A DNA stretch of 64,000 bases from Candidatus Omnitrophota bacterium. Its GTDB lineage: Bacteria > Omnitrophota > Gorgyraeia > Zapsychrales > Fredricksoniimonadaceae. A program made the position numbers and the translations under genes. The notes beneath the pieces were generated by a model, which saw only the letters and a list, made by a program, of their open reading frames with translations, was not told the DNA's origin and made no database searches. Each line of letters starts with the position of its first letter. Position 1 is the first letter of the stretch. Shown here in pieces: positions 12,996 to 58,787 of the stretch. The DNA lies in the NCBI GenBank assembly GCA_037131245.1, contig JBAXRK010000010.1, forward strand, positions 3,397 through 67,396, given 5' to 3'.

Positions 12996-13030
12996 TGTTT
13001 TCTATTATACCATGAATCCTTTCGCCCCGA

Positions 13031-13048: not shown

Positions 13049-13060
13049 GTGGCTCAAGGA

Positions 13061-13100: not shown

Positions 13101-13120
13101 TTGATTCTATTGGCTGGCTC

Positions 13121-13149
13121 TTGTTTTACCGGCTTTAATAACAAATACT
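13121..13149 (+). promoter_or_regulatory. Putative sigma-70-type promoter of paralog 1 (TTGTTT-17 nt-AATACT)
   Basis: -35 at 13121-13126 and -10 at 13144-13149. The 10-mer AATACTTATA is identical to 27276-27285. An SD (GGGGAGG) precedes the ATG at 13181. Confidence 0.45.
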
Positions 13150-13180
13150 TATACAGGTGGAAGTCTGATGGGGGAGGTGT

Positions 13181-27281: not shown

Positions 27282-27306
27282 TATATACGGCGAGGGAGTC
27301 GTGTAT

Positions 27307-42581: not shown

Positions 42582-42685
42582 CCCGCCCTTTAAATATTTC
42601 AATAAATCAGCCTTTAAATACGCCTATTTGTTAAGATTTATTCAAGGGTTCTTTTGAATTCAAATAACAAATAGTATTCTTTTAA

Positions 42686-45600
42686 ATGCCTCAGAGGTCA
42701 TTCATTAAAAACTTCTGGCGAGCCGCGGCGTATTATGTCTCCTTTGCCGGGCTTTTCTTCCTGGTAGCTATGACGGCCTGGGGGGCGGGTATCTCTGTCC
42801 CTCCGAATTCCCAACTGAAAGTCAATGGCGGCATTCTTCATGTTGAGCTGGCCAATAATTCCGGCGACGTGGTCAATGCCGGTATTATCGAGCTCGACAC
42901 CGGCCGGATCATGCTTAACGGCAGCTGGACCACGGATGGCCCTTCGGCTTATTTGCTGGGAGGAGCCGGGACGGTTGAGTTTACCGCAGCGACCGGGACG
43001 CAGTTCATTACGCCTGGTTCTAACATCAATGACGGATTTTTTGACCTTATTCATAGCGGCGCGGCAGATCTGGAGCTTATCAGCCATGCGGTCAGTATCG
43101 ACGGCAGTTTCAGCAATCTGGTGGGGACGTTCAAGACCAATGGCTTGAATATGGCGGTCGGAGGGAATTGGCATAATGTTTCCTTCTCGTCGTTCATTTC
43201 AGGCTCGGCCACCGTTGCTTTTGACGGCGGAGACCAGGTGATATCCGGTGAAACGTCATTTTATAATTTTACCAAAGTTTTGACGGCCGCCGGCCCCCGG
43301 ACACTGACCTTCCCGGCCGGGTTGCAGCAAAAAGTGGGGCGGTTGTTGATGCTTAGGGGCTTTAATGATGTTGATAACCTTAGCCTACGCAGCAGCACAG
43401 ATACGGTGCAGGCGCAGCTATCCCTGCTGACCAACGGTATTCAGGATATTAATGCGGTCAACGTGAAAGATAACAATGCCAGTGGCGGGGTCACCTTGAT
43501 CGCGCGCGGCTTATCGTCAGTTAACGCGGGGAATAATGCGAACTGGCAATTCGGAGCGGTCGCCGTCAAATGGGATGGGTCGGAAGACACGGATTGGAAT
43601 AATCCGTTCAACTGGAATATCGGCTTGGTTCCGGGCCCGCAGGATACGGCGATTGTCCGCGCCGTGGATGAGGACAATGGTTCTCTGCCGATCACGCATC
43701 AGCCGGTGTTGACCGTGGTTTCTCCGGTCACTGGCCTCGCTGTTGTCAATCATGTGGGAGCTCTCAAGATATCCTCGGGGGCGACCCTGACGCTTGATCA
43801 GCACGATATGATCGTTACGGGGACTTTTACAAATGACGGCACGCTTGTTATCAGCGGTGATGAAACCCTGGGTGCTGCCAGCATCAGCGATGACGGGACG
43901 TTCATGTATTACGGCGTGCCTGGGAGCAAATCGACCATTACGCTGACCAAGACCTTTAAGATCGCCGGGAATTACCTTACCACGTTCAACAATCTGACCA
44001 TCCACGAGCAGGCTTCCGGTCCTTTTGAATCTGATAGTTTCACGACGGATGCTCCCTTGACCGTGAGCCAGGGGTTCTCGCTGGAGGTGGGTGGATTTAC
44101 TATTGGGCAGGACCTGACATTGTTCGCGCATAATGCATTAACCGCTACGGGAGGAACGTTCACCATCGCCGGTGATGTCAGTGTGACAGGTGTTATGCGC
44201 GTTGCCGGTAGCGCGCTTTCCATGGTCAGCAGCGCGTCAACGCTTAGCAGTCTGCTGGATATGGACCTAGTGTCGGGGACGGTGGATGCCGAGCTTGGGA
44301 ATATACGGGCGAAGAATATCAATATTGCCGGAGGCACGCTGCTGGCACCCGGCACGGGACGTTCTTTCGCGATCTCCGGAGATTTTACTCATTCCGCCGG
44401 GACATTTACCCATAAGAACGGCACGGTAGTCTTGGATGGTGCGTCGGATAGCGCGGCAACCGACCAGGTGATTTCCGGTGACACGTCATTTTACGACGTG
44501 GTCAAGCAGGTTCCCGCATCAGCTTTCCCGGGTCAGCGCTTGACCTTCGCTGCGGGCACCACCGTGACCGTTGGTGATTATTTGACCCTGTCCGGAGGGG
44601 TGGATGCGGCGCATTTGCTGCTTATCCGCAGCACGACCGGGGTGGCAGGTAACTTGAAACTGGTGGTCAATGCCGGGCAGAGCATTTCAAACGTGGATGT
44701 GGCGAATAATGCGGCGACCGGGTTGACGTTAATAGGGCGGAATTTTTCCAAGAGCAGCGGCAATACGCCTAACTGGAAGTTCGTCAATGGGTCGCTTACC
44801 TGGGATGGTTCACAATCCGCGGATTGGAATGATCAGCGTAACTGGGACTTGGGTGTGGTTCCGATCCCCAATGACAGTGTGGTCATTACCAATGGTGTCA
44901 CGGTTGACTTCCAGCCGGCCCTTTCCAGTGATGTGACGGTCGGTGACCTGGCCCTCTTCGTGCCTTCCGCGAATTTGATCCTCGCCGGCCATAATATCAC
45001 GGTCCATAACACGATCACGTCTTCGGGAACGCTGTCCAATGAAGGGACGATCTATCTGCGTGGAACGGAGAGCGTCGCGATCGATGCGCCCGATGTGGAT
45101 TCCGGGCTGTTCGTGTATCAGGGGGATAATGTCAGCAGCGTTAAATCGATCACCTCGCTCGGGCCGAATACGTTCTATAATCTCAAGATCAGCGATCATA
45201 ACGGGAATCTTTCGAACTTTACGTTGACGACCGATATGACCCTCCACGGATCTTTGACCGTCGACGGCGGCACGTTGACAGCCAGCGGGTACAGCATGGA
45301 TATTACGGGCGATGTCTCCTTGACAGGGGGGACGTTTATCGCGCCGGGTACCGGCAAAACTTTGTTTGTCGGTGGGAATTTCAGCCATTCTTCGGGTTTA
45401 TTTACGAATAGTTCCGGCTCGGTCTCCTTCAACGGATCCTCGGCTTCGGTGGCGAAAGATCAGGCGATATCTGGGGATACGACCTTTTATGAGTTTATCA
45501 AGCAGGTCCCCATCGGCGCTTTCCCGGGCCAGAAATTAACCCTGGCTCACGGGTCGACGCAAACGGTGCAGAGCCACCTGGTCCTTGAGGGCTTAACACA

Positions 45601-48600
45601 GGTCGATCCGCTCTTTATCCGTTCAGATGCCGGAGGGTCAGCTGCCAACCTTCAGTTGTCCGTTGGTGGATTGCAGACGATCCGATCGGTCGATGTCAGG
45701 GATAATACGGCTTTGGCTGTGACTCTGGTGGCCCGTGCATCGCCGGATAACGCGGCACTCAATAACACGAACTGGATATTCGGCGCGCCGGAATTGAAAT
45801 GGGATGGGTCAGCTTCGACGGATTGGGGTGATCCGCTTAATTGGGACCTCGGCCTTGTCCCGGTGTCGGGCGATGGCGCCGTCATTCGCTTGGTCGATCC
45901 CTTGACCGTGCCGCCGAACCTCACGATCATTAATCAGCCGGTCCTGACCTCGCATTCAGGCGCGGTGTCGCTGCAGAACCTGACACTTTCTTCCGGCACC
46001 ACGTTGACGCTTGACGGGTATGGCTTGACGGTCTCGGGCGCGTTGACCAACGACGGCAATATTATCGCCAAAGGCAGTGAGGCGATGACTATTGCGAATG
46101 CCGATACCCTTCATGGCACGTTCACCTATGCCGGTGACGATACGGTAGCGGGGGTGCTCACTCTGAGTCCTTTTGGTGCCTTGCCGGCAGTAAATTTTTA
46201 TCATGACCTGGTGATCACGGATGCCGGCCTACCGAATATTTTGCGCAGCCCGGCGCAGACGGGGCTGCATGTGTTTGGCAACTTGACGGTGTCTTCCGGC
46301 GAGCTGGATGTATCAACCGGCAGTGATTCCTTGATCGTTGACGGTAATATGCTGATCTCTTCCGGGGCATCCCTGGAAGCTCAAGGGGGCGCCATTGACC
46401 TGCAGGGATCGGCGACGGTGCTTGGCAAGCTTTCTGCTCCCGGCGCGGGACGGTTATTTACCATTGGTGGAAGCTGGTCGTTTGACCCCGCGGCGACGCT
46501 TACCGTGAACAATGGCCGGGTGACTTTTGATACCTCCAATGCCACGACCTTGAGCGGGAATACATCATTTTATGATCTGGCCATGTTGTCGAATAGCGCG
46601 AAAGCGGTCTTTTTTCAGGCGGGCAGCGTCCAAACCGTTGCGCATGGGCTTAACCTCCAAGGTGGAGAGAATGGGCTCATGGCCCTGCGTTCTACAGTTG
46701 ATGGAAATCCCTGGAGGTTGCAGCTCAGTTATATGACCGGGGATGCGATCGCTGTGCCGAATACCGTGGCCGGGTGGGTGGATGTTAAGGATTCTGTCGC
46801 GGCCGGGCCTTTTGTCAGGCCTTTTTATATCACGGCGATCAACTCGGTCGATCAGCAGGTGGGAGGGCACTCGAGTAATTCCGGCTGGATCATTATCAAA
46901 TTGTTCCTGATCGCTCCCGAGGACAATCGTGTGGTCGGTATCAGGCCGGTCGTTATCGGCCAGACCGGCGCGAGCACGGCGTATACCATCAGGGACCTTT
47001 TTGGCAATATCGTGGCTTCAGGCACGTCAGATAGCCGTGGCTATTTCCGCAGCGCGCTTTCGGCTGACCTGGCGCTGGGCACGAACCAGGTAACGCCCTA
47101 TTACGAAAATGTGCCTGGCCTTTCCAGTGATGTGACGGTAGATGCCGCGCCGACCACGGCCCAGGTCCCGGTGATCACGTTGCCATCGCCGGGGAAGAAC
47201 CTGGCGACCGATTTCCCGGTCATGGTTGGTTCGGCCAAGCCCAATACCGCGGTCTACGCGGTGGCAAATAACAATACGATCGATCTGCCGTTGACCTTGC
47301 CGCTGACAAGTGCCGCGGGCAGTTCTACGGCGGATGCCGCCGGCCATTATTCTTTTGCGCTGACGACTCAGCTCAAGCGCGGATTGAATCATATCTCTAT
47401 CGTGTCGGACGGCGTGTCGAGCGCGATCAATACGTACGCGCTTAGCGATCTTTCCGGGTATCTGTTTGACGCCACGACAAATAATCCTATCCGCAAGGCT
47501 AAGGTCAAGCTTTACAAACTGAATGCCAGCGGTCAGAGGGTCGCGGTCGATCTGACGGATATACCGCCCACCCAGCCTAATCCTGTTTTAACGGTCGATG
47601 ATGGCATTTACGACGGGTTTTATGATTTTCGCGTCATCAATCTTGATCCGACGGTCAAGTATGTCCTTGATGTGGAGGAGCCCGGTTATACGTTCCCGAC
47701 CGCGATGGCCGATAACGCCCAATTGCCGGCCGGGCACTCGATCGTGGTCGGTTCCCGAGGTGAAGCGATAACCCTGGCGGACTTTATCAAGCAGATCGAC
47801 CTGCCGGTGGATGCCAATCAATTCCTGTTTAAGGTCACCAAGGACGTGAACAAGGCGGAAGCCAGGATCGGCGATGTGGTGACCTATACGGTCACGGTGG
47901 AGAGCCTCTCAAACCAGAATACTGTCTTGTCAACGAAGTTGAATGATATCATCCCGCCCGGGTTCAAGTTCATGGAAGGACGGGTCCATTACGGCGACGG
48001 ATCGCCTGTTGAAGTGTCCGGTAACCGGCCGCTGTTGTTTAAGACCGGCACGTTTACCGCTCGACAGATCAAGGTCCTGAAGTATCAACTGGTCATTGGC
48101 GCGGGAGTTGCTCCCGGCGATTATGTTAATACGGCGTTCATGAAGTATGACAATGGGTCTGTTATCTCTAACCGGGCGAATGAGACGGTGAAAGTGGTCA
48201 TGGACCCGCTGTTCGATGCCGGCACGGTTTTCGGTAAGGTTTTCTGGGATCTTAACGAGAACGGCCGCCAGGACCCCCCTGAATATGATCTTGAGAACCG
48301 TCAGGAGATCATCGAAGGCCCCGTGCCGAATGTTCATCTGGTCATGGAGGACGGGACCAGCATTACCGCCGACAAGAATGGGCAGTTCCATATTCCGGGG
48401 CTGCTGGCCGGGCGGCATGTGGTCATGCTCGATCAGCGCAGCCTGCCGAAAGGGGCTTTCCTGACGACAGAGAAAGCCCCGGTCATTGATGTGACCCCCG
48501 GCATGCCGATCAAGCTGAACTTCGGCGTTAACATGGGCAATGATCAGGTTGTGGGTGAAGATGTTCAGTTCTTTGACCGGAACTTGAAGATCGAGCAGTC

Positions 48601-51600
48601 GGGGGACAAAATAGCGCCCGTGCTCAATGTCGATATATTTGAGAAAGAGCTGCGGATGCGCCTTGATACGGTCGTCAAACCGGTGGAATTCCGGATATTC
48701 ATGAATTACGCGCCGTTCATCTCTTCCTGGAAACTGGATATTATTGATAAAGATACCAAGAAGCTGGTCAGGGAGTTCAACGGGTCGCGCTACAACATTA
48801 ACGATCCCGTCGTTTGGGATGGCCGCGATGCGACGGGCCGTTGTGTGCTGGCCGATCGTAAGTACGCGTATCTGGTAAAGGTTCAAGATGAAAAGGGCGT
48901 TTGGGATGAGACCCAGGAAAAAGATATCAATGTCCGTTCGCTGACCGACCTTGAATTTGAAGCCCTTTCCAAATTGACTGAAGAAGACAAAAAGAAAGAA
49001 GCCGAGGCCCGCCGTAAAGAATACCGCGCCTGGCAGATCGCTTCAACGGGAAGGGATATAACGGCGCATCGCAATATTTTTGTTAAAGGCGAGACCTTGA
49101 CTGTTGATCCGCAGGAAACCGATATCAGGCAGGTCAGGGTTCTCAAGAGCGGGGAGCTTTTTATCGAGTTGCCGGTGCTTGAGCGTCAGGCGCTTACGGC
49201 CCGGGGCTTGTTGAGCAGCGAGGCTCAGCCGGCGCCTCCGATGCAGATCATCCTGCCGGATGGTGATTATGAGCTGGAAGTGGTCAGTGCTGATGCTCCG
49301 GTCAAAGGGGCTTCCGCGCCTGATACGTCGGCACTAGCTTCGGCCTCGGGAGTGCCAGCCTTGGATGAACATGCCCCCGCGCCGGCATTGAAAGTGGCCC
49401 AATACCGTCGACCGGTCAAGGTCGGTGAGGACTATATGACCTTCGTCGCCCTGGGCGATAGCCAGGCCGGGTGGAATTTTAACCGGGGCAATATTGAGCC
49501 GGTCGCTTCCGTTGATCATTTCCAGCCTGGTTTTTATCAGGAAGGGAAGATGGCCTATTATTTGAAGGGCAAGATAAAAGGCCGCTACCTTTTGACGTCC
49601 AGTTTTGATAGCCAGCGCCAGCAAAAAGAGATGTTCCGCTCGATCAAGGACGATCAGTATTATCCGGTTTATGGGGATGCTTCGACCATCAATTATGACG
49701 CGACCAATACCCAGGGCAACCTTTATCTGATGCTGGAATGGGATAAGTCGCAGGCGATCTGGGGGAATTACGCTGTTGATTTCAAGGATACGGAGTTCGC
49801 CCGTTACAGTCGCACCCTGTATGGCGGCAAGCTTGATTACACCAGCGTGGCAACCAATGTTTATGGCGACCCAAGGACCCGCGTGGCAACGTTTCACGCC
49901 GAGGTGCGCCAGCGTTCGGCCCATAATGAATTTCTTGGGACCGGTGGTTCATTGTATTATTTGAAGCATCAAGGGGTTGTGGTCGGAACAGCCAAGATCC
50001 ACCTGGAGGTTCGTGATGCTGTTACCGGCCAGGTGCGCTCCACGACGGAAATGAAGGACGGCGTTGATTATGATATTGATAATAGCCAGGGCCGCATCCT
50101 GTTCTGGCAGCCGGTCGCGATGTCGGCGGATTCCGGCCGCATTATTTCAAACCAGTTGCTTAGCGGGGACCCGGTTTATGTGGTCGCGGACTACGAGTTT
50201 GAAGTGAAGGATAAAATGCTGGAAGCGACCGAAGGCGTCCGGGTGGCCCAAGCCGTGGGCCGGAACGTTGTCCTCGGTGGGACGTATGTCAGCGAAACGC
50301 AGCAGGGGGGGGATTATCAGTTGAAAGGCCAGGACGTGACGGTGCATGTGGGGCGTGACACGACGGTCAAGGCGGAATACGCCACGACGCAGTCGCAGGA
50401 CAGCGCCAGTTTTGTTTCCACCGATGGCGGCATCACGTTCAGTGAGCTTGGTGTCGGCAATCTTGCTTCTGGTAAAGCCTATGGCATTTCGCAGGATTCC
50501 CGGCTTTTTGACCGGCTGGGGCTCAAAAGTTATTATAAATGGATCGAGAATAATTTTGCGTCCGCTTCAACCTCTGCGCAGCAGGGCAAGGCGATGTCCG
50601 GCCTGGGGTTGACCTTTGATCTGACGCCGGTGACGCGCTTGACCGCCAGTCATGATGTGCAACGGTTGATCGAGCAGGGTAATTTGCAGACGGCGATGCA
50701 GGTAGGCGCCCAGGAAACCTCAACGACGGTCCTGCAATTGGTGCATGATGCCCGTCGCCTGCGGATAACGGGGGAATACCGGCATCAGCAGGTCACTTCG
50801 AAAGACGGGCGTTATATTTCGGAGAGCAATCAGGCACAGGATACGCTGGCCCTGCAGGCGGAATATGATCTCAATGAAAAAACAAAACTGACGTCGAAAT
50901 ATGAGGTTGACCCAACGGGAAAAGCTGCTGGTGCCGGACAGGTAACGACCGGCATTACCCGGCAGCTGACGGACCGGCTTTCCGCGACGGTGGCTGAATC
51001 GCTCGGGACGACAGGCCATGCCACCAAGGTCGGGGCGACGATGAACGTGACCCCCAAGATGGCGCTTTCCGCCGCTTATCAGCTCGCGCAGGTTTCCGGC
51101 GGCCCGTTGACCCGGACGAAGAGTGTTTCGTTGACGGGTAAGGAGCAGATCGGCGACAAGACGTCTATCCAGACCAACTACACGATCTCTCAGGATGATA
51201 CCGGTTCTACCCGGATGATCGTCGGCGTGAATGCCGGGTCGGAGGTCAAGCTTGACGATGCGGTCCTCAAAGCCGGGGTCAGGGTCCAGGCTGATGACAG
51301 GAATGTGTCATTGCTGAGTCAGGGGGCCGGCCTGGACGCGTCCAAAACGGATAAGCAGGGGCATACGACGAGCAGTTCGGTCAAGGTCGATGAGGTGCCT
51401 GCCGCCGGAAAAGTGACGACGGTCACGCTTGGAGATAAAGGGCCTCTCGCGCCTGGGAGGGACCTGGTCGCTGAGAAGACGTTCGCTTTTGGCCAGTCGG
51501 GGGAGGAACGGGGTAATACTTATAAAGTGGTCCAGGAGCGGGACGGGAAGAAACTGGAAACGGCCTACACGCGTAAGCTTTCGGATACACAGGCACAACG

Positions 51601-52834
51601 TTCGGCGTCGAATATTTTCGGCTTGACGGGGGATGTTAATGACCGGGTAGCCGCCAATGCGTCCCTTGAACAGGGGGTGGTCCAGAATATCGACGGGTCT
51701 TTATACCACCGCACCGCGATCTCCGGTGGCTTCGGTTATCTTGAGAAGGATGAGGAAGGCAAGGAGAAGCTCAGGAGCTCTTCCAAGGCTGAACTGCGCC
51801 TGGACCGCGGCGATCACGCTAAGCAGCAGTTTGTTTTGTATCAGGATGCTCAGGGTAAGGTTAATGACCAGACGACCCTTTCAGCCAAGCTTCAGTTCTC
51901 GCAGACCAAGGACAAGGATCTTAACAAGGTCGAGGCGCAGTATAAGGAGATCATTCTCGGGGCCGCGTATCGCCCGATCATGGATGACCGGCTGAACCTT
52001 TTCGCGAAATATACTTATAAGGAGAATCAGGGGCCGGCCGGCCAGTTGAACATCAGCGATGTTGAACAAACCAAGATGCAGGTTTTTTCCGCGGAAGGCG
52101 CTTACGACTTGAACGCTGACTGGCAGTTGGTGGAAAAAATGGCTTACCGGATGATGGAAGAGAAAGTGGCGGGGTTCGATTTTGCTAAAACACATACGTG
52201 GTTGCTGGTCAATCGTGCTAATTATCGTTTAGGGCAGGACTGGAAGGTGGGGGCGGAGTACCGAATATTGACTCAGCAGGAAGCACGCGATCGCAAGAGC
52301 GGATTCCTGGTGGAGGCCGTGCGCAGCATCAATGACAACGTTGAACTGGGAGTTGGGTATAATTTTACGGATTTCGTGGATGACCTGACGAATTTAAGTT
52401 ACACGGTGCAGGGGCCGTTCATCAGGATGAGCGGTAAGCTCTATGACCGCACTCCGGAGGAGCGTGCCCGTGCCCGGGAGAAGTGGCTGGATCGTCGCAT
52501 TGAGATCTATGCCTGGAAGATGGTCAATACCGAGTTCACCCGTAAGGACAGCCCGGTCGTTCTAGAAATGAATGCCTTGTACCGGATGGCGCAGGCCGCC
52601 AGCCAGCGCGGGCAGCTTGAAGAATCGCGGCGGCTTTACAAAGACGTGATCCTGGCGACCCAGTTGATGTACGAGGAAGCGGCTAATTTCGTGCGTCAGC
52701 ACATCAGTTTTGAAGAAAAGCTTTATAACGCCTCACTGCGTGCCAGGGAATATTATGACAAAGGCGAGCTTTGGGCGGCCAAGAAACTTTGGGAGAAAAT
52801 TGTGGAAGAAGCCGAACGCTCTATGTTACAATGA
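42686..52834 (+). CDS. Giant (3382-aa) surface/outer-membrane protein: four beta-helix-type modules, Ig-like, DUF11-like, SdrD-B-like and FlgD-Ig-like domains, a ~1000-aa beta-rich putative barrel, and a helical tail
   Basis: N-terminal signal anchor. Modules are marked by ISG(E/D)TSFY (near 43246, 44470, 45470 and 46555) and NW.F....L.WDGS...DW..P.NW.(I/L)G.VP (43541, 44771, 45769). DUF11-like VTKDVNKAEARIGDVVTYTVTV (~47825). GKVFWDLNENGRQD (~48235). WKLDIIDKDTKKLVREFNG...VVWDGRD (~48720). Alternating beta-strand pattern from 49400 to 52440, ending VELGVGYNFTDF. Confidence 0.85.
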   Translation: MPQRSFIKNFWRAAAYYVSFAGLFFLVAMTAWGAGISVPPNSQLKVNGGILHVELANNSGDVVNAGIIELDTGRIMLNGSWTTDGPSAYLLGGAGTVEFTAATGTQFITPGSNINDGFFDLIHSGAADLELISHAVSIDGSFSNLVGTFKTNGLNMAVGGNWHNVSFSSFISGSATVAFDGGDQVISGETSFYNFTKVLTAAGPRTLTFPAGLQQKVGRLLMLRGFNDVDNLSLRSSTDTVQAQLSLLTNGIQDINAVNVKDNNASGGVTLIARGLSSVNAGNNANWQFGAVAVKWDGSEDTDWNNPFNWNIGLVPGPQDTAIVRAVDEDNGSLPITHQPVLTVVSPVTGLAVVNHVGALKISSGATLTLDQHDMIVTGTFTNDGTLVISGDETLGAASISDDGTFMYYGVPGSKSTITLTKTFKIAGNYLTTFNNLTIHEQASGPFESDSFTTDAPLTVSQGFSLEVGGFTIGQDLTLFAHNALTATGGTFTIAGDVSVTGVMRVAGSALSMVSSASTLSSLLDMDLVSGTVDAELGNIRAKNINIAGGTLLAPGTGRSFAISGDFTHSAGTFTHKNGTVVLDGASDSAATDQVISGDTSFYDVVKQVPASAFPGQRLTFAAGTTVTVGDYLTLSGGVDAAHLLLIRSTTGVAGNLKLVVNAGQSISNVDVANNAATGLTLIGRNFSKSSGNTPNWKFVNGSLTWDGSQSADWNDQRNWDLGVVPIPNDSVVITNGVTVDFQPALSSDVTVGDLALFVPSANLILAGHNITVHNTITSSGTLSNEGTIYLRGTESVAIDAPDVDSGLFVYQGDNVSSVKSITSLGPNTFYNLKISDHNGNLSNFTLTTDMTLHGSLTVDGGTLTASGYSMDITGDVSLTGGTFIAPGTGKTLFVGGNFSHSSGLFTNSSGSVSFNGSSASVAKDQAISGDTTFYEFIKQVPIGAFPGQKLTLAHGSTQTVQSHLVLEGLTQVDPLFIRSDAGGSAANLQLSVGGLQTIRSVDVRDNTALAVTLVARASPDNAALNNTNWIFGAPELKWDGSASTDWGDPLNWDLGLVPVSGDGAVIRLVDPLTVPPNLTIINQPVLTSHSGAVSLQNLTLSSGTTLTLDGYGLTVSGALTNDGNIIAKGSEAMTIANADTLHGTFTYAGDDTVAGVLTLSPFGALPAVNFYHDLVITDAGLPNILRSPAQTGLHVFGNLTVSSGELDVSTGSDSLIVDGNMLISSGASLEAQGGAIDLQGSATVLGKLSAPGAGRLFTIGGSWSFDPAATLTVNNGRVTFDTSNATTLSGNTSFYDLAMLSNSAKAVFFQAGSVQTVAHGLNLQGGENGLMALRSTVDGNPWRLQLSYMTGDAIAVPNTVAGWVDVKDSVAAGPFVRPFYITAINSVDQQVGGHSSNSGWIIIKLFLIAPEDNRVVGIRPVVIGQTGASTAYTIRDLFGNIVASGTSDSRGYFRSALSADLALGTNQVTPYYENVPGLSSDVTVDAAPTTAQVPVITLPSPGKNLATDFPVMVGSAKPNTAVYAVANNNTIDLPLTLPLTSAAGSSTADAAGHYSFALTTQLKRGLNHISIVSDGVSSAINTYALSDLSGYLFDATTNNPIRKAKVKLYKLNASGQRVAVDLTDIPPTQPNPVLTVDDGIYDGFYDFRVINLDPTVKYVLDVEEPGYTFPTAMADNAQLPAGHSIVVGSRGEAITLADFIKQIDLPVDANQFLFKVTKDVNKAEARIGDVVTYTVTVESLSNQNTVLSTKLNDIIPPGFKFMEGRVHYGDGSPVEVSGNRPLLFKTGTFTARQIKVLKYQLVIGAGVAPGDYVNTAFMKYDNGSVISNRANETVKVVMDPLFDAGTVFGKVFWDLNENGRQDPPEYDLENRQEIIEGPVPNVHLVMEDGTSITADKNGQFHIPGLLAGRHVVMLDQRSLPKGAFLTTEKAPVIDVTPGMPIKLNFGVNMGNDQVVGEDVQFFDRNLKIEQSGDKIAPVLNVDIFEKELRMRLDTVVKPVEFRIFMNYAPFISSWKLDIIDKDTKKLVREFNGSRYNINDPVVWDGRDATGRCVLADRKYAYLVKVQDEKGVWDETQEKDINVRSLTDLEFEALSKLTEEDKKKEAEARRKEYRAWQIASTGRDITAHRNIFVKGETLTVDPQETDIRQVRVLKSGELFIELPVLERQALTARGLLSSEAQPAPPMQIILPDGDYELEVVSADAPVKGASAPDTSALASASGVPALDEHAPAPALKVAQYRRPVKVGEDYMTFVALGDSQAGWNFNRGNIEPVASVDHFQPGFYQEGKMAYYLKGKIKGRYLLTSSFDSQRQQKEMFRSIKDDQYYPVYGDASTINYDATNTQGNLYLMLEWDKSQAIWGNYAVDFKDTEFARYSRTLYGGKLDYTSVATNVYGDPRTRVATFHAEVRQRSAHNEFLGTGGSLYYLKHQGVVVGTAKIHLEVRDAVTGQVRSTTEMKDGVDYDIDNSQGRILFWQPVAMSADSGRIISNQLLSGDPVYVVADYEFEVKDKMLEATEGVRVAQAVGRNVVLGGTYVSETQQGGDYQLKGQDVTVHVGRDTTVKAEYATTQSQDSASFVSTDGGITFSELGVGNLASGKAYGISQDSRLFDRLGLKSYYKWIENNFASASTSAQQGKAMSGLGLTFDLTPVTRLTASHDVQRLIEQGNLQTAMQVGAQETSTTVLQLVHDARRLRITGEYRHQQVTSKDGRYISESNQAQDTLALQAEYDLNEKTKLTSKYEVDPTGKAAGAGQVTTGITRQLTDRLSATVAESLGTTGHATKVGATMNVTPKMALSAAYQLAQVSGGPLTRTKSVSLTGKEQIGDKTSIQTNYTISQDDTGSTRMIVGVNAGSEVKLDDAVLKAGVRVQADDRNVSLLSQGAGLDASKTDKQGHTTSSSVKVDEVPAAGKVTTVTLGDKGPLAPGRDLVAEKTFAFGQSGEERGNTYKVVQERDGKKLETAYTRKLSDTQAQRSASNIFGLTGDVNDRVAANASLEQGVVQNIDGSLYHRTAISGGFGYLEKDEEGKEKLRSSSKAELRLDRGDHAKQQFVLYQDAQGKVNDQTTLSAKLQFSQTKDKDLNKVEAQYKEIILGAAYRPIMDDRLNLFAKYTYKENQGPAGQLNISDVEQTKMQVFSAEGAYDLNADWQLVEKMAYRMMEEKVAGFDFAKTHTWLLVNRANYRLGQDWKVGAEYRILTQQEARDRKSGFLVEAVRSINDNVELGVGYNFTDFVDDLTNLSYTVQGPFIRMSGKLYDRTPEERARAREKWLDRRIEIYAWKMVNTEFTRKDSPVVLEMNALYRMAQAASQRGQLEESRRLYKDVILATQLMYEEAANFVRQHISFEEKLYNASLRAREYYDKGELWAAKKLWEKIVEEAERSMLQ

Positions 52835-52892: not shown

Positions 52893-55800
52893 ATGAAGAA
52901 GATGCCTTTCCTTCTGCTGGTTTTGGCCCTGTTTTTCACGCTGCCTGCCAAGAGCCTTTTCGCCGACCCTGCCGCGCAGCAGGAGCCATCGGTTTTGGCT
53001 GAAGGGCAACCTTCTGTGCTCAAAGAGGATAAAGCCCAGGCGAATTACGTGTACGACCTCAAGATGCTGGTCGCCAAGTCGCGCGAGAATATCAAAAACG
53101 TTAATGAAAAGATCAAGAACCAGGCCGTTCTCAAGCGCAATCAGCAGCGCGAAGAGCGGGCCAGGGAGTATTTTCTTCAAGCGCAGAAATTGGCTGATGA
53201 GGGCCGTTTGGAAGAATCCCGTCAGATGTATGAGAAGGCCATTGCTATCACCGAACACCCGGAGATGAAATACTATATTAAGGAAAGCGAGCATCGCGCC
53301 AAGGCGCAGAAAGCTGCTCTTTCCCGGCAGGAAGGTGAACAGCAGCGCCGGTCCGAAGAGGAAGAGAAGACAGCTTTTGAACGTGTCGAGAGTATTTATC
53401 AGGGTGCCGTATCGCTCTATAAGCAACAGCGTTTTAAGGAAGCCCGCGCCGAGTTCCAGACGGTGGAAGAGGTATTCCCCGATTATAAAGCCGTCCGCAG
53501 TTATCTTCAGATCATTGAGCAGGACATTGTCCAATCAGAACGTCAGGCGATCAAGGCCCAGCAGAAAGAGATCGAGTCTCAGCAGAAAGAGAGCGAGATC
53601 GCCCGTTTGCGTGAGAAAGAGCTGTGGCGTAAAGAGGTTGACCGTAAGGAAGAAGATCGCCAGAAGCAGGTGCAGAAACAGGCCCAGGATGTTTACGACA
53701 CGGCCATCAGGCTATATCAGGACCGCAAGTACAAGGCGGCTAAAGAGAAATTTCAGGAAGTAGAGTGGGTCGTTCCTGATTTTAAGGCGACGCGTTCTTA
53801 TCTACAGCGGATCGATCGCGACCTTGAAGTCGACCAGGCCCGTGTTACCGAGGAGCGGGAGAAGGTTATTGAGAAGCAGCGTTGGGATGAGACCCTTGCC
53901 CAGAAAAGGGCCGAAGAGGACCGCAAGAAGGCCGAGGCAATGCGGGACCATCAGCAACTGGAGGGGAAGAAGGACCAGGCAGAGTTCATCTATCAGTCCG
54001 GCATCGCTTTGTTCGATAAGGGACAGCTGGATACCGCCCGCGAACGTTTTGATGAGGTGGAAGCCCTTTATCCGGATTACCGCTCGACCAGGGATTATCT
54101 CAAGCGTATCCATGAGAGCGTCAAGTCACAGATAAGCCGGGATGAGGAGCTTCGTCAATCCGCAGCTGAGAAAAAGATCCTTGAGGAAGAAAACGCCCAT
54201 CGCAAAGCGGATAAGGAGAAGTTCAAGCAACAGGCCGATGAGGCGGATGCTCTTTACACGCAGGCTTTTGACCTTTATAAAATTGGCCGTCTGGTCGAAG
54301 CGAAGGCGAAATTCCTCGAGGTCGATCAGCGCGTTCCCGATTATAAATCAGCGCGTTCCTATCTTAAACGTATTGATGATGATATCGCCGCGATGGTGTC
54401 CGCTAATCGTAAGGACGGCGATCTGGCGTCCCAGAAAGAACAGCTGGAGCGTTTGAAAGATTTGCGTGACCGGGCGGACCTGGTCTATAACGACGCTATC
54501 CTGGCGTACGACAACAAGGATTTTACGTCGGCCAGGGCGAAGTTCCAGGAAGTTGAAGGGATATATCCCAATTATAAAAAGGCGGTTTCCTACCTGTCTC
54601 GTATTGAGGACGATATCACGCAGCAGCAGAAGGACGAACAGCGTCGAGAGGTCGAAAAGAAAGTCGACGCTCTTTACGCGCAGGCGTTGGCATTGTATGA
54701 AAAAGAAGCATTTGAAGAAGCCAAGGCTAAATTCATTGATGTCGCTTCACTGATCCCGGATTATAAGCAGACCGCGTTTTATCTGGAGCGTATTGATGAT
54801 GATGTGATCCGTTCCAAGCAACGATCGATCGATACGCTGCAGCAGAGCCAGGCCGAGGCTCTTTATAATCAGGCCGTTTCATTGTATCAATCGGGGCAGT
54901 TCACGGAAGCCAAGGATAAGTATCTTCAGTTAGAGACGGTCATTTCGGGTTATAAAGATACGGCCAAGGTCTTTGCCAATATTGACGCCGACATTGACCG
55001 CAAGAAACAGCAGGACGAAGAGAGATCCAAGGCGGCCCGAGCGGAGGTTTTTTACCAGCAGGCCCTTGCTTTATATCAGGGGAAGGATTTTGCGGCGGCT
55101 AAAGATAAATTCGTTCAGACTGAGGTCGTTTACGCTGATTACAAGGATACGCCCAAGTATCTTTTATCGATCAACAGTGATATTAAAAAGCAGGCGGAAG
55201 ACCTTGATCTCAAGAAGAAGAATGATACCGCGGAACCACTCTACGCTCAGGCCTTGGCGTTGTATCGAGAACAGGATTTTGAAGCGGCCAAAAGAAAATT
55301 CCTTCAGGCCCAGATGGCGTGTCCCGGTTATAAAGAGACCGAGCGTTACCTGGCACGGGTTGATGAGGATATTCGGTTGGTGCAGGCTAGGCTTGCCAGG
55401 GAGGAAAAGCTTAGCAAAGTTGAAGCTATTTATGCTACGGCGATGGACCTGTATTCTTCATCCAAGTTTGTTGAAGCCAAAGCCAAGCTGCAGGAAGCTG
55501 CCGCGCTGGAAAGTAACTATCGCAATGTGAAGTCTTATCTTGCCCGGATCGATGATGATATCCGTCGCGAGCAGGCGAGGCAGGACCGGCTGGTGCAGGA
55601 GCAACAGGTCGAACGCCCCTATTCGGAGGCTGTTGCCTTGTATCACATGGGGAAATTTGAAGAAGCCAAGCCTAAATTCCAGCAGGTTGTCGCGATCCTG
55701 CCCGATTACAAGAAGGCCAAGTATTATTTTTCCAGGATCGACGAGAATATCCTGGCCCAAAAAAGGGAGGAAGACCGTAAGTCCCTGGAACGGGCGGAGA

Positions 55801-58787
55801 GCCTTTATCGAGAGGCCAGTCTTTTGTTCCGTAACGGTTATGCTGGCAAGGCGTATCAGAAGTACATTGAACTCGATCAGGTGTATCCTGACTACAAGGC
55901 CACGCGTCAGGCGCTGGCAGATCTGAAAAAGAAGCTTTCCGAAAAAGTGGCGGCTTTTTCCGAGCCGCCGCATCTGCCGGACGCGGTGCCCGCTGTTAAT
56001 GCTTCGAAGCCCCCTGATCAGGATGATGAAAAGGTCCTAGGAGTTTACAAGGATGCGGTTGCACTTTATAAAGAGAAGAATTACCCCGGAGCCAAGGGTC
56101 GGTTTGAAGAGGTGGAACGTCTTCAGCCCGGTTATCGTTCTGCCCGGAAATACCTTGATATGATCGCGGCGATCGTACCGCCAGCGCGTCCTGCCCCGGT
56201 GATCCCGGCGACTCCTGCGGTTCCCGTTTCTTTACCTAAGCCGGTCGTGCCGACCCTTACGCTTAAGGAGTCACTTGATAAACAGCAGTTGGCAAAAGAT
56301 TCAAAGACCGTCGATGAATTGACGCAGCGGTCTGGTGTTTTATATCATCAGATCCGCGCTTTAGCGGAAGATAAGGATTTTGCCCAGGCGGCCAAGACTT
56401 TTTCCAAGATCGACCAGATTGTGGCCAATCTGGAGCAGGAGAAAAAGCGCCTCGCGCGTACGATCGAACGCGAGGAGAAACTCGAGCGTGAGCGCCAGGA
56501 GCGTCAGAAGAAGCTGGAAAATGAAGCTCATCTCAATGAGAAGGATGCGGCGGTTCGCCGGGAAGGGTTGAAGCAGGCTCAGGCCCAGAAGAAGGAAGAT
56601 GAGGACCGTGCCCGCCAGGCAGCGAGCGATAAAGAACAGCAGGATTTAAAGCGTAAAGAGCAGGCTCGTTTGGCCCAGGTGAAAGAGCTTGAGAAAGAGA
56701 CCCGGCTGAAAACGGAAGTCCTTTATCAGCAGGGACAAAATAGTTTTAACGATAAGAATTATTCTTTGGCCAGGGAGCGTTTTGCCGATGCTTTAAAGCT
56801 GATGCCGGGGTATAAGGATATTGAGATCCTTATGGTCAGGATCGATCAGGCCGAAGGTGAGCAAAAGTTGCTTGAACAGGAAAAGGCCGACCGGGCGAGA
56901 GTGGCGTCGATCGCTGAGAAAGCTAATGCGGTGAACCTTGAAGCTCTGGCTCTCTCTAACGCCAAGAATTTTCCCGGACTGCAGCAGAAATTCGATGAAT
57001 TGAGTTCTCTGCTACAGGATATTCAAGGCATCAAGGGTCATATGCTGGCCAACCGGGAGGATTTTCGCAAGGAGTGGGAGGGCAAGCTGGCGGCTGCCCG
57101 CGCGAAAGCAGATGCTCCTAAACCTATCAAGGATATGAAAGCGATGGTTGAGGGGCGGACCGCGCGTCAGCAGGCGGAAGCTTTTTACAAGCAGGGAGAA
57201 CAATTTTATAATGCCGGGCAATATGCTGAAGCGCGTGTAAAGTTCCGTGATTCTTTTGCCGCGGACCCTACCTTCAAGGCGGCGTATACTTTCTCGCTTC
57301 GAGTTGACCGCATTCTTGAGCATCGTGATTTTGAGGAGCAGCAGGGGCGGGCCAAGAAAGAGAAACGTCATTTCGACGATAAGCAGGAGGGCTTGGCTCC
57401 CTCGCCAGTTGACGACGCAGCATTGGCGCCGGATCCTGCCAGGGCGAAGCAAGTTTATGCCGATGGCATCGAGCTGTACAAGCAGAAGAAATTCAAGGAA
57501 GCTCGGATAAAATTCGAGGAACTTTCTAAAGTCGGCGATACGCTGCAGCGCGCCAAGGCCGTACGGTATTTAAATTTGATCGAAACAGCGTTAGATAAAG
57601 CCAGGCAGGATGCGGAGAAAGAGCGGGCGCAGGAAGAAGCCCGGTATCTTGAGGGTAAACGCCTGGAGACCAGGATGGCTCTTGAGAGGGATAAAGGCCT
57701 TCCGGTGAAGGAACTGGTTGATGACGCTGAAAATAGCCAGCATGCCCAGGATGCGGCGGTTGAACGCCAGGTCCTTTTAAGGTCGATCGAACAGGAGAAT
57801 GATGCCGAGCGAAAGAAAATGTTGTCCGAGCGGTTACGCCAGAAAGATATAGCCGAGCAGAAAGCTGCGGCAGAGTGGGGTCAGGTAAGGAAGTTCGCGG
57901 TGCATCAGGATGTAAAGATGGGGGATAAGGCACCGACAATCCCGGGAAAACCCCCGGAGATCCAGACCCCGGCCGTTCCGGTAAAGAAAGTGCCACCGGC
58001 GGCTTCGAAGCCAAAGAAGGATGGGGTATCGGTTCAGCCTGAAAAGCAGGTGACTGTTCCCGCGGAAGTCAAGACTGAGACGGAATCCAGAAAGAAGCTG
58101 GCTAAGGGTAGTATGAAACAAAGGCCGCTGGTTGTCACCGCGACCGATAGCCGCGAAGATGCTCAATTCCAGCGGCTTATTGCCCGTCAGAAGGTTATTG
58201 AGGCAAAGGAGACCGAACGCAAACGTTTGATCATGGAACGCGAGCATCAGGCCCATGAACTTGAAAAGATGCGGGTTGAGGAAAAGCAGCGGCGCGCGCG
58301 AGAAGCTCAACTGCGCCGGGATAAAAAGGAACTCAAAGACGCTTCGTCGCCTGTCCCGATGCCCGTAAAAAAACCGGCAGTTACAGTGGTGGCGCCTTTA
58401 CCGGCGGTTACCGCGCCGTTACCAGCGGCAGTTCCTTTGGATGTTTATCATGCCGCGGCTAATGAGGAAAAACGTCGCTTGGAAGAGCAGCGTGCCGCTA
58501 TCGCGCGTGATTTCGAGGATGGGGTTGAACGGCTTTATGTTGAGGCGCTGGATCTTTATAAAAAACATGCTTACGAAGAAGCGAAAGAAGACCTGACGCA
58601 GGTCAATGAGCTGATCAAAGGGTATAAGAAATCTGAGCAGTATCTGATATCGATCGATAAAGAATTGTCGAAGCCGTCTCGTCGTTCGAAGGGGCTTTCC
58701 TCGTCTTCATCCGCTATCAGGACTGATCGTCGCGGGGAAGCCGTCGCCTCAATGCTGGATCAGGCCGAGCATGGCGCCGTGAAGTAA
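52893..58787 (+). CDS. 1964-aa secreted repeat protein: about 17 copies of a ~70-aa TPR-like helical unit ending (P/A)(D/G)YK...YL.RID.DI, joined by E/K/R/Q-rich coiled-coil linkers
   Basis: The start is taken at MKKMPFLLLVLALFFTLPAKSLFA (signal peptide), not the track start at 52710, which overlaps the giant gene. Recurrent motifs include FPDYKAVRSYLQIIEQDI, VPDFKATRSYLQRIDRDL, VPDYKSARSYLKRIDDDI, IPDYKQTAFYLERIDDDV and CPGYKETERYLARVDEDI. Confidence 0.85.
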   Translation: MKKMPFLLLVLALFFTLPAKSLFADPAAQQEPSVLAEGQPSVLKEDKAQANYVYDLKMLVAKSRENIKNVNEKIKNQAVLKRNQQREERAREYFLQAQKLADEGRLEESRQMYEKAIAITEHPEMKYYIKESEHRAKAQKAALSRQEGEQQRRSEEEEKTAFERVESIYQGAVSLYKQQRFKEARAEFQTVEEVFPDYKAVRSYLQIIEQDIVQSERQAIKAQQKEIESQQKESEIARLREKELWRKEVDRKEEDRQKQVQKQAQDVYDTAIRLYQDRKYKAAKEKFQEVEWVVPDFKATRSYLQRIDRDLEVDQARVTEEREKVIEKQRWDETLAQKRAEEDRKKAEAMRDHQQLEGKKDQAEFIYQSGIALFDKGQLDTARERFDEVEALYPDYRSTRDYLKRIHESVKSQISRDEELRQSAAEKKILEEENAHRKADKEKFKQQADEADALYTQAFDLYKIGRLVEAKAKFLEVDQRVPDYKSARSYLKRIDDDIAAMVSANRKDGDLASQKEQLERLKDLRDRADLVYNDAILAYDNKDFTSARAKFQEVEGIYPNYKKAVSYLSRIEDDITQQQKDEQRREVEKKVDALYAQALALYEKEAFEEAKAKFIDVASLIPDYKQTAFYLERIDDDVIRSKQRSIDTLQQSQAEALYNQAVSLYQSGQFTEAKDKYLQLETVISGYKDTAKVFANIDADIDRKKQQDEERSKAARAEVFYQQALALYQGKDFAAAKDKFVQTEVVYADYKDTPKYLLSINSDIKKQAEDLDLKKKNDTAEPLYAQALALYREQDFEAAKRKFLQAQMACPGYKETERYLARVDEDIRLVQARLAREEKLSKVEAIYATAMDLYSSSKFVEAKAKLQEAAALESNYRNVKSYLARIDDDIRREQARQDRLVQEQQVERPYSEAVALYHMGKFEEAKPKFQQVVAILPDYKKAKYYFSRIDENILAQKREEDRKSLERAESLYREASLLFRNGYAGKAYQKYIELDQVYPDYKATRQALADLKKKLSEKVAAFSEPPHLPDAVPAVNASKPPDQDDEKVLGVYKDAVALYKEKNYPGAKGRFEEVERLQPGYRSARKYLDMIAAIVPPARPAPVIPATPAVPVSLPKPVVPTLTLKESLDKQQLAKDSKTVDELTQRSGVLYHQIRALAEDKDFAQAAKTFSKIDQIVANLEQEKKRLARTIEREEKLERERQERQKKLENEAHLNEKDAAVRREGLKQAQAQKKEDEDRARQAASDKEQQDLKRKEQARLAQVKELEKETRLKTEVLYQQGQNSFNDKNYSLARERFADALKLMPGYKDIEILMVRIDQAEGEQKLLEQEKADRARVASIAEKANAVNLEALALSNAKNFPGLQQKFDELSSLLQDIQGIKGHMLANREDFRKEWEGKLAAARAKADAPKPIKDMKAMVEGRTARQQAEAFYKQGEQFYNAGQYAEARVKFRDSFAADPTFKAAYTFSLRVDRILEHRDFEEQQGRAKKEKRHFDDKQEGLAPSPVDDAALAPDPARAKQVYADGIELYKQKKFKEARIKFEELSKVGDTLQRAKAVRYLNLIETALDKARQDAEKERAQEEARYLEGKRLETRMALERDKGLPVKELVDDAENSQHAQDAAVERQVLLRSIEQENDAERKKMLSERLRQKDIAEQKAAAEWGQVRKFAVHQDVKMGDKAPTIPGKPPEIQTPAVPVKKVPPAASKPKKDGVSVQPEKQVTVPAEVKTETESRKKLAKGSMKQRPLVVTATDSREDAQFQRLIARQKVIEAKETERKRLIMEREHQAHELEKMRVEEKQRRAREAQLRRDKKELKDASSPVPMPVKKPAVTVVAPLPAVTAPLPAAVPLDVYHAAANEEKRRLEEQRAAIARDFEDGVERLYVEALDLYKKHAYEEAKEDLTQVNELIKGYKKSEQYLISIDKELSKPSRRSKGLSSSSSAIRTDRRGEAVASMLDQAEHGAVK

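Follow-up and report, generated by a model that had tools for sequence, protein, structure and literature searches.

A giant Omnitrophota protein with repeated beta-helix modules and a predicted very large C-terminal outer-membrane barrel

Type Va autotransporters combine a signal peptide, a variable beta-helical N-terminal passenger and a constant C-terminal outer-membrane (OM) barrel in one chain. In this study, we analyzed a giant open reading frame (ORF) whose product of 3382 amino acids (aa) is predicted to share this plan. The ORF lies in a stretch of 64,000 nucleotides from a Candidatus Omnitrophota contig, hereafter called the window. The protein differs from type Va autotransporters in its barrel of about 1000 aa, for which ~38 or more strands are predicted instead of 12, and in the lack of PF03797 and of any sequence homology. 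It also has an immunoglobulin (Ig)-like stalk and a small domain before the barrel, and a helical tail after it. In type Vb systems (TpsA/TpsB), a secreted beta-helix protein is encoded beside an OM barrel, as it is in three loci related to the one studied here. However, the barrel of this family lacks POTRA domains and does not resemble Omp85, a TPS domain is missing from the passenger, and the two are fused in the window. Scans against Pfam and NCBIfam found no POTRA, ShlB or TPS domain.

As far as the accessible text of the sources goes, no single-chain barrel solved so far is larger than SprA (36 strands), and barrels of 38-40 strands have only been predicted (bioRxiv 10.64898/2026.03.07.710327; bioRxiv 10.1101/2022.10.09.511469; PMC8346858). 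SprA, the translocon of the type IX secretion system (T9SS), and the 30-strand SlpA of Deinococcus are very large single-chain OM barrels like the one predicted here, and both were among its Foldseek matches. Nevertheless, TM-scores were 0.11-0.20, no sequence similarity or T9SS/SLH context was found, and the predicted strand count is larger here. The SprA family gave no Pfam or NCBIfam match and Foldseek TM-scores of 0.11-0.19. For the usher family, there was no Pfam match to PF00577 and no chaperone or pilin neighbour, and the TM-score to FimD was ~0.2-0.3. Since no signatures were found, membership in the autotransporter, TPS, usher, SprA and LptD families was rejected. The 38-/40-strand outer-membrane beta-barrel (OMBB) superfamily of Solan et al. 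2021 (PMC8346858) also consists of predicted single barrels above any solved, and the conserved core here is likewise put at ~38-40 strands; this comparison is with the description in the accessible part of that paper.

Fibrillar adhesins with the CLIPPER domain, formerly DUF11 (PMC12617251), share with the protein a CLIPPER domain within a long repeat-built chain, a signal peptide and a terminal anchor. However, only one CLIPPER domain is present here, and the anchor is a giant barrel rather than sortase, PEP-CTERM, OmpA or type I secretion system (T1SS) retention. Omnitrophota also encode ORFs of more than 20 kb, the 'archaeovorins' (PMC10066038; bioRxiv 10.1101/2023.11.21.568195), which are likewise large and proposed to act in contact with other cells. 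In contrast, the gene studied here is 10 kb, and its product has no transmembrane helices or enzymatic domains and is built on an OM barrel. A relationship was rejected because of this difference in architecture, and the barrel family is described in neither PMC10066038 nor bioRxiv 10.1101/2023.11.21.568195. The protein is best described as a very large variant of the barrel-anchored surface-protein theme, in a big uncurated family.

The giant reading frame and its predicted C-terminal barrel domain

The gene and the elements of its C-terminal domain are as follows (coordinates are those of the window).

42686-52834 (+): giant ORF, 3382 aa, a single ATG-to-stop frame
49433-52447 (+): predicted giant OM beta-barrel domain, aa 2250-3254 (structure model, Foldseek, covariation, family profile)
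49937-50203 (+): conserved beta-sandwich insertion, aa ~2418-2506, GTGGSLYYLKH...DYDIDNSQGRILFW, candidate plug
51053-51610 (+): clade-variable, low-confidence barrel stretch, aa ~2790-2975, pLDDT 30-60
52412-52447 (+): terminal barrel strand and putative beta-signal GPFIRMSGKLY, aa 3243-3254, from family C-termini

The ORF is one uninterrupted frame, as the first-pass annotation, made by a model from the sequence alone, had stated. The exact protein is deposited as MEI6438226.1 (hypothetical protein WCO69_05710), from a Candidatus Omnitrophota metagenome-assembled genome (MAG), on a 99-kb contig. Comparison with giant ORFs of related genomes revealed intact, colinear orthologues of 3445 and 3454 aa in two independent Omnitrophota MAGs (L001, CAIVRE010000007.1; L002, JADFZK010000004.1), with the same neighbours as here: a long ORF upstream at the dnaE position, and ORFs of ~2070 aa and ~500 aa downstream. 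Alignment with these orthologues shows only small indels, plus one 54-aa insertion in the orthologues at aa 2791. They share 45-76% identity with the query in aa 1-1700 and 69-96% in aa 1800-3382. A further relative of 3384 aa lies on a 196-kb contig of the Joint Genome Institute (JGI). Because the orthologues are intact and colinear in two independent MAGs, and with this relative in addition, an interrupted ORF or assembly chimera, which would have undermined the annotation, is ruled out. The ORF is genuine and intact in three or more assemblies. The 104 nt upstream of it (42582-42685) are AT-rich and contain no recognisable Shine-Dalgarno sequence before the ATG.

AlphaFold2 (AF2) was run on aa 2240-3382 with a 52-row alignment. 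The resulting model of 1143 residues had a predicted local distance difference test (pLDDT) score of 72.9 and a predicted TM-score (pTM) of 0.62. It contained 57 beta-strands in an up-and-down meander over aa 2250-3253, followed by four helices at aa 3257-3378. Both the ~1000-aa region of alternating beta-strands and the helical tail of ~130 aa that had been read from the sequence were thus found. A Foldseek search of the Protein Data Bank (PDB) with this model gave OM barrels as top matches (TonB-dependent receptors, LptD, the FimD usher, SlpA and SprA), with one outlier, the beta-belt of ApoB100. The TM-scores of the barrel matches were low, about 0.1-0.3, the highest being that of FimD (target-normalised TM-score, TMt, ~0.3). 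No standard-size barrel exceeded a target-length-normalised TM-score of ~0.32, and none fitted a sub-domain. In the model, the local architecture of the C-terminal domain is OM protein (OMP)-like, and its global shape is unlike anything solved.

Covariation was analyzed by mean-field direct coupling analysis (DCA) with a reduced alphabet, using 237 family sequences (effective number, Meff, 191) and 873 columns. Of the adjacent strand pairs amenable to scoring, 25 lay above the 99th percentile of non-adjacent pairs. Since adjacent strands covary, the meander is supported independently of AF2. Strands 2409-2417 and 2513-2524, which flank the inserted sandwich, also covary, as expected because the sandwich is inserted between neighbouring wall strands. 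The sandwich itself consists of short high-pLDDT strands that interrupt the meander, and its alignment columns are near-invariant. At the closing pair, formed by the first and last strands, the signal was not above background; the last adjacent pair is itself weak, and the analysis has no power there. Apart from the sandwich, there are no long linkers between strand blocks. The amphipathicity of the strands was moderate overall and weak in aa 2800-2965. The low-confidence stretch (about aa 2770-2990) coincides with breaks of high-scoring segment pairs and length variation among homologues, and has more than 40% gaps in the family alignment. By our count, ~38-40 wall strands are conserved family-wide and ~11 clade-specific strands are of uncertain nature, giving ~49 in the query.

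Most relatives end 31-34 residues past a G.GYNF motif, in the sequence ...G(P/F/W)F.R.(T/S)GK(F/Y)-COOH, and this family terminus reads as a classical aromatic-terminated OMP beta-signal. The barrel had previously been taken to end in GVGYNFTDF. That motif, at aa 3222, is the penultimate strand; the terminal strand is GPFIRMSGKLY, which marks where most relatives end and is internal in the query, with the tail after it.

In Pfam, the barrel gave weak matches to OMP_b-brl, Phenol_MetA_deg and DUF2490. The match to PF13505 (OMP_b-brl) reached 22.8 bits, short of the cutoff of 28.7, and no curated OMP barrel match was found in Pfam or NCBIfam. A PDB sequence search with the barrel profile found no relative. 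Comparison of the barrel with itself by BLAST detected no internal repeats; only the identity match was returned, as it was for the N-terminus, so this is weak evidence. The very large barrel proposed in the first-pass annotation thus agrees with the AF2 meander, the Foldseek matches, the covariation and the beta-signal, and not with any curated OMP family. Taken together, the modelling results support the view that the C-terminal ~1000 aa form a very large OM barrel of at least ~38 strands.

The barrel profile was then searched against 1.84 billion representatives of clusters at 50% identity. The family comprised 4326 clusters at E<=1e-3 and 2211 at E<=1e-30, and no Pfam or NCBIfam model covers its conserved core. 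The barrel domain was invariably C-terminal, in sequences ranging from partial fragments to 7612 aa. Among Met-starting sequences, the N-terminal extension before the barrel ranged from ~20 to 6693 aa, with a median of ~840. Judging by source names, the members are mainly from Omnitrophota, together with Scalindua, other Planctomycetota, environmental Chlamydiae, Thermodesulfovibrionia, 'Deltaproteobacteria', Sedimenticola and Wallbacteria.

The putative N-terminal passenger and its split relatives

The region before the barrel was divided as follows.

42686-42784 (+): predicted Sec signal peptide, aa 1-33, MPQRSFIKNFWRAAAYYVSFAGLFFLVAMTAWG, with A following the cleavage-type site (inspection of the translation)
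42788-43540 (+): beta-helix module A, aa 35-285, without a leading Trp motif; ISGETSFY at aa 186
43541-44770 (+): module B, aa 286-695, cap NWQF..WDGSEDTDWNNPFNW..GLVP, then solenoid; ISGDTSFY at aa 596
44771-45769 (+): module C, aa 696-1028, Trp-rich cap, then solenoid; SGDTTFY at aa 929; the modelled module
45770-46900 (+): module D, aa 1029-1405, third Trp-rich cap, diverged solenoid; SGNTSFY at aa 1290
46901-47830 (+): Ig-like array, aa 1406-1715, Big_6-like, then a CarboxypepD_reg-like beta-sandwich
47831-48154 (+): CLIPPER/DUF11 domain, aa 1716-1823 (PF01345, TIGR01451, TIGR04226)
48239-48475 (+): SdrD_B/CarboxypepD_reg-like beta-sandwich, aa 1852-1930
48668-49432 (+): junction region, aa 1995-2249, from sequence; weak FlgD_ig match in homologues only

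The signal peptide shows, by inspection, a basic n-region, a hydrophobic core of 20 aa and an A-W-G cleavage-type site. Behind it, four diverged modules of ~330-410 aa had been described, and pairwise comparison (M1 to M4) confirmed their mutual homology, with E-values from 8e-58 to 4.5e-7. Identity was 41% over 181 aa for M1-M2 (E 1e-31), 42% over 205 aa for M1-M3 (E 5e-39) and 35% over 379 aa for M2-M3 (E 8e-58). M4 is more diverged, with 28-30% to M2 and M3 (E 1e-15 to 1e-16) and 29% to M1 (E 4.5e-7). The ISGxTSFY-type motif is present in every module in the form SGxTxFY (aa 186/187, 596/597, 929 and 1290). The Trp-rich motif NW.F...WDGS...W...NW had been assigned to all four as well; however, only three copies were found (aa 286, 696 and 1029), sited between modules, and module D is not followed by any. 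In the split relatives described below, this motif stands immediately after the signal peptide. We therefore prefer to read it as capping a module at the N-terminus rather than closing it.

The four modules fall outside all Pfam and NCBIfam models, and a PDB sequence search with the passenger found nothing. An AF2 model of module C (aa 690-1030, 17-row alignment) had a pLDDT of 84 and a pTM of 0.79, and contained 31 short strands of 3-11 residues, mostly 3-5. A Foldseek search of the PDB with this model gave no significant match (best E 0.49). Almost all of the top 50 were right-handed parallel beta-helices, including the SRRP adhesin, the P22 tailspike, PL6 lyases, polygalacturonases, tapirin and the EspP passenger, and for this reason the beta-helix or beta-solenoid reading of the modules is supported qualitatively. 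Modelling of segments, which had been proposed as a check, therefore agrees with the predicted architecture at both ends, with a solenoid-like module C and an all-beta meander plus four helices in the C-terminal segment.

The number of modules differs among relatives. Scalindua-type homologues have one, the query has four SGxTxFY modules with three Trp caps, and a 4913-aa Wallbacteria protein (P0138) has eight Trp caps at ~345-aa spacing. These counts indicate that passenger length varies by tandem duplication. A search of 5.8 billion sequences with the N-terminal module returned 2 matches only, apparently because it was swamped by low-complexity candidates.

Carboxypeptidase-regulatory, DUF11, SdrD-B and FlgD-Ig domains had been proposed to follow the modules. 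DUF11, now named CLIPPER, is the sole stalk domain of the query above curated thresholds: PF01345 scored 29.9-35.8 bits against a gathering score of 24.6, TIGR01451 scored 37.2 bits (E 2e-9) against a cutoff of 24; a TIGR04226 match had E 2e-3. In fibrillar adhesins, CLIPPER occurs as a CnaA-like, isopeptide-type stalk domain (PMC12617251, which cites PDB 9IFR as a solved example). The other three were less clear in the query. The SdrD_B and CarboxypepD_reg matches at aa ~1852-1930 were sub-threshold (E 9e-3 and 7e-4), and FlgD_ig was not detected in the Pfam scan, with weak matches in homologues only. In the Ig-like array, a Big_6 match at aa 1411-1466 (E 3e-5) was under the Pfam gathering score; PF17936, PF13620 and PF13715 are found here in homologues. 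Big_6 and CarboxypepD_reg/SdrD_B exceed threshold at equivalent positions in homologues. The junction is made up of an FlgD-Ig-like sandwich, a charged helix (~aa 2086-2120), an Ig-like domain (~2121-2195) and an Ala/Pro-rich linker (~2196-2249). A Scalindua homologue has a choice-of-anchor U domain.

Relatives also exist in which passenger and barrel are separate genes, and the split points map to aa ~2113-2170 of the query. Several proteins consist of a signal peptide and barrel only (P0086, P0089, P0109, P0009, P0026, P0241, P0163 and P0073), and such stand-alone barrels begin with clear signal peptides of their own. At three independent loci (L009, L011/L012 and L013), a secreted passenger-type gene adjoins a stand-alone barrel, in varying gene order. 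L009 has a 1111-aa barrel that carries a signal peptide of its own; two paralogous secreted proteins are encoded upstream of it. Each of the two has a signal peptide, Trp cap, beta-helix, CLIPPER, SdrD_B and Ig domain, and they match aa 1197-2113 of the giant protein. In L011/L012, a passenger ORF with a match to aa 2031-2155 overlaps the signal-peptide-bearing barrel gene, ending 20 nt past its start; only the FlgD-Ig-like/helix C-terminal end of this passenger lies on the L011 contig. In L013, the barrel (930 aa) comes first, and the gene behind it encodes a secreted protein of 1216 aa with Beta_helix, CarboxypepD_reg, CLIPPER and SdrD_B domains. Fusion in one lineage and adjacency elsewhere, in either order, suggest that passenger and barrel work together, with the barrel as the passenger's partner in the membrane. 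Across the family, the C-terminal barrel stays constant while the passengers in front of it are hypervariable, and a gene separate from that of the secreted passenger can encode it. This relation of fused and split forms would parallel that of autotransporters and two-partner systems, with an unrelated and far larger barrel.

Two of the related loci contain probable sequence breaks. The first passenger paralogue of L009 (66-2808) is apparently frameshifted, being an 832-aa ORF with an out-of-frame-looking end, and a 107-aa ORF continues its match to the giant protein (aa 1998-2085). L008, with a 1244-aa ORF (4266-8000, homologous to aa 6-1621) and an 1840-aa ORF (8001-13523), was considered as a fourth split case and rejected in favour of a probable frameshift, because the ORFs abut, a signal peptide is missing from the second, and long-read coverage of the contig is 3.5x. 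It is probably one gene for ~3080 aa broken by sequencing error.

The helical tail and neighbouring genes

Three features at and beyond the end of the giant gene were considered together.

52448-52831 (+): helical TPR-like tail, aa 3255-3382 (128 aa), four helices, pLDDT ~85-93
52893-58787 (+): secreted 1964-aa TPR-like protein, signal peptide MKKMPFLLLVLALFFTLPAKSLFA, TPR_2 E 3e-28
59247-60698 (+): AsmA-family (AsmA/DUF748/YhdP-like) envelope protein, 483 aa, PF05170 E 2e-14

An extension after the barrel had been called unusual. OmpA carries a C-terminal extension after its barrel, so the tail is not anomalous in itself. Both ends of an even-stranded barrel face the periplasm, and we infer that the terminal beta-signal strand and the tail do so as well. 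It is restricted to one clade and missing from most relatives. Its matches to TPR_1, TPR_2 and TPR_6 (E ~0.01, 16 bits) were below the thresholds of 26-28.

The TPR-like gene begins 59 nt past the giant gene. The ORF as listed begins at a TTG at 52710, and the most probable start is 52893, where the signal peptide begins. A promoter and terminator scan was uninformative overall and showed no terminator-like site between the two genes. The protein contains roughly 20 hairpin units with the consensus ...LY..A..LY....F.EAK.KF.EV....PDYK....YL.RID.DI, separated by highly charged coiled-coil linkers; the number is an estimate by eye, as a regular expression for the unit gave no match. Among relatives, its length ranges from 273 to ~2070 aa.

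The TPR-like gene was found directly downstream of the barrel in seven of eight tail-bearing loci and in none of the five tail-less loci examined; all of the tail-bearing loci from Omnitrophota had it. The homologues in L001 and L002 have 64-66% identity, and more distant ones were found in L008 (1743 aa, E 2e-94), L007 (600 aa, E 8e-29) and L011 (273 aa, E 3e-7). A 423-aa protein in L009 has the same N-terminal ~90-aa signature by eye. The gene was absent at the tail-less loci L003, L010, L005/L006 and L013, and at the Scalindua locus L004, whose barrel bears a one-unit tail. The best match of the tail within the TPR-like protein is the conserved N-terminal domain of the latter (44% over 25 aa, pairwise E 0.008), a likeness that is suggestive only.

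At the position of the AsmA-family gene, L001 and L002 have ORFs of 507 and 498 aa, matched by position and size rather than by homology. This position is kept in the loci of close orthologues and not in distant ones, and a DUF748 gene lies at the edge of L011. The tail-less Omnitrophota clade (L003 and L010) has a different order: dapF-dapA-dapB, an OMP-like protein of ~530 aa, the barrel, a lipoprotein of ~150 aa and uvrA. The ~530-aa protein has a signal peptide and ends in ...SSNRF or ...SSRRY (L003 8366-9961, L010 6387-7970). The lipoprotein, of ~130-160 aa, has a lipobox GGC/IGC (L003 14706-15107, L010 12613-13104). This neighbourhood extends from dapFAB to uvrA-ftsH-hrcA-grpE, and its barrel and lipoprotein genes form an LptD/LptE-like pairing.

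Elsewhere in the window, GC skew was positive in every 2-kb interval across 1-64000, and the cumulative skew climbed monotonically to 4.0. Nearly all long ORFs lie on the + strand, a pattern that would be expected if the segment is leading-strand DNA with strong gene-strand bias. A 1527-aa ORF at 27301-31884 (+) has a class I methyltransferase domain at aa 647-749 and is otherwise unannotated; it is overlapped by a 1348-aa ORF at 31877-35923 (+), whose only match is a PPDK_N fragment. A 1285-aa ORF at 13181-17038 had no Pfam match at all. Directly upstream of the gene for P0101, a barrel homologue with an OmpA domain, in two related loci, are three consecutive ORFs of ~200 aa without Pfam matches (L005 5919-7882, L006 4835-6798).

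Readings of the protein and their weight

Our leading reading, which we consider about as likely as not, is that the protein anchors itself at the cell surface and functions in the manner of an oversized autotransporter, with a periplasmic tail. It would be exported by Sec through its N-terminal signal peptide. BAM, the machinery for beta-barrel assembly, would recognise the beta-signal, seen at family level, and insert the C-terminal ~1000 aa into the OM. The product would be a very large barrel with ~38-40 conserved wall strands, possibly ~48-50 in the clade of the query, and the conserved beta-sandwich insertion may plug it. The N-terminal ~2200 aa, comprising the four beta-solenoid modules and the Ig-like stalk with CLIPPER/DUF11, would be the passenger. 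It would reach the cell surface through or alongside the barrel, remain tethered by the charged helix, small Ig domain and Ala/Pro linker of the junction, and act as a long adhesive or contact fibre. The 128-aa tail may stay in the periplasm and dock the co-encoded secreted TPR-like protein, which would couple the barrel to a periplasmic scaffold. The split relatives would be the two-partner version of the same device, with a separate, adjacent, signal-peptide-bearing passenger and barrel.

Surface display is favoured because the length variation of the N-terminus is extreme (up to 6700 aa), because its domains are of adhesin type, with a choice-of-anchor domain in one homologue, because the passenger is diverging more quickly (45-76% identity) than the barrel and tail (69-96%), and because the fused and split forms share the logic of type V secretion. 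A self-anchored adhesin or cell-contact apparatus, as the first-pass annotation had suggested, is the best-supported functional reading.

Several points weigh against it. None of the results fixes the side of the membrane on which the passenger lies. Closure, strand number and lumen size rest on a model without coordinates, and covariation is powerless for the closing pair. A barrel of 40-50 strands would have a lumen of several nm, yet the only candidate plug is ~90 aa, and the middle ~190 aa of the barrel are of low confidence and weakly amphipathic. The tail resembles the downstream protein only weakly (pairwise E 0.008). Passenger-less barrels exist, and the barrel may therefore serve some role that has nothing to do with display. 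In the Pfam and NCBIfam scans, signatures of autotransporters, TPS/POTRA, ushers and SprA were absent. Finally, in the P0101 subfamily a peptidoglycan-binding OmpA domain follows SdrD_B and lies just N-terminal to the barrel, and at least that barrel-adjacent segment must therefore be periplasmic. A periplasmic segment at this place fits outward threading of the passenger through the lumen, which would be the topology of an autotransporter to which a periplasmic domain has been added, or a wholly periplasmic N-terminus.

The second of these would make the protein a periplasmic strut or tether, with the barrel in the OM and the whole N-terminus a rigid spacer that, with the tail and the TPR-like protein, would link the OM to the peptidoglycan or inner membrane, a functional analogue of Deinococcus SlpA or of OmpM. 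We regard this as unlikely. It would agree with the general rule that both ends of an even-stranded OMP barrel are periplasmic, with the OmpA domain of the P0101 subfamily, and with the conservation of periplasmic-type partners beside the barrel, namely the TPR-like secreted protein and the AsmA-family gene. Deinococcus SlpA is among the Foldseek matches, and the conserved housekeeping neighbourhood of the tail-less clade, with its OMP-like and lipoprotein genes, fits a core envelope role. However, N-termini of up to ~6700 aa and such extreme length variability are hard to fit into the periplasm and atypical of tethers; beta-helix, CLIPPER, SdrD_B, Big_1/Invasin_D3 and choice-of-anchor U are extracellular adhesin domain types; the passenger evolves faster than the barrel; and neither an SLH domain nor a coiled-coil stalk is present. 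The tail-less neighbourhood could also be read another way. Its small lipoprotein gene beside the barrel recalls LptD/LptE, and with the AsmA-family neighbour in the query locus and the stand-alone barrels that have only a signal peptide, it would suit a barrel that is primarily a channel or translocon for other cargo (proteins, polymers or lipids), with accessory N-terminal domains, like usher, SprA and LptD. The inserted beta-sandwich and the small N-terminal Ig domain recall the plug and N-terminal domain of ushers, and FimD gave the top TM-scores (TMt ~0.3). Nevertheless, these scores are far too low for homology, no sequence relationship to the usher, SprA, LptD or Omp85 families was found, and the sole recurrent partner of stand-alone barrels is the type of passenger that is fused here, which points to the passenger as the cargo. 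We therefore think a translocon for other cargo quite improbable.

Less probable again is that the C-terminal region is a chain of several smaller barrels, or an amphipathic beta-sheet that stays open as a belt. The closing-strand covariation is not above background, the ApoB100 beta-belt is among the Foldseek matches, the middle segment is of low confidence, and multi-barrel chains are known from prediction, according to the accessible part of PMC8346858. However, separate barrels of 8-22 strands should give a target-normalised TM-score above ~0.32, and no standard-size barrel did so. Strand blocks are joined without long linkers, the inserted sandwich aside, a single beta-signal stands at the very end of the domain, and the 1143-residue model has a pTM of 0.62. 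A bolder version of the autotransporter-like reading, which we put forward tentatively and hold to be rather doubtful, is that of an undescribed OM export-and-anchoring device. Its single-chain barrel of ~40-50 strands, larger than SprA, would translocate and hold a beta-helix/Ig-like fibre, either fused or encoded by an adjacent gene, and in one clade the periplasmic helical tail would connect it to the giant TPR-like protein as a scaffold. In Omnitrophota, which are ultra-small and possibly dependent on hosts, such a device may serve as the cell-contact organelle.

If the model holds, these proteins would be the largest class of single-chain OM barrels. The family has thousands of members, yet no Pfam or NCBIfam model covers it, and no description was found in text searches of the literature. 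Its fused and split arrangements offer a natural genetic handle on export by a barrel unrelated to Omp85 and autotransporters. Were the passenger exported by such a barrel, proteins would be displayed across the OM in a new way. The family also poses the problem of how so large a substrate could be assembled by BAM. The lifestyles of Omnitrophota and other uncultured anaerobes have been deduced mainly from genomes (PMC10066038). For these organisms, among them Scalindua, Wallbacteria and environmental Chlamydiae, the protein family is a concrete candidate for an attachment apparatus.

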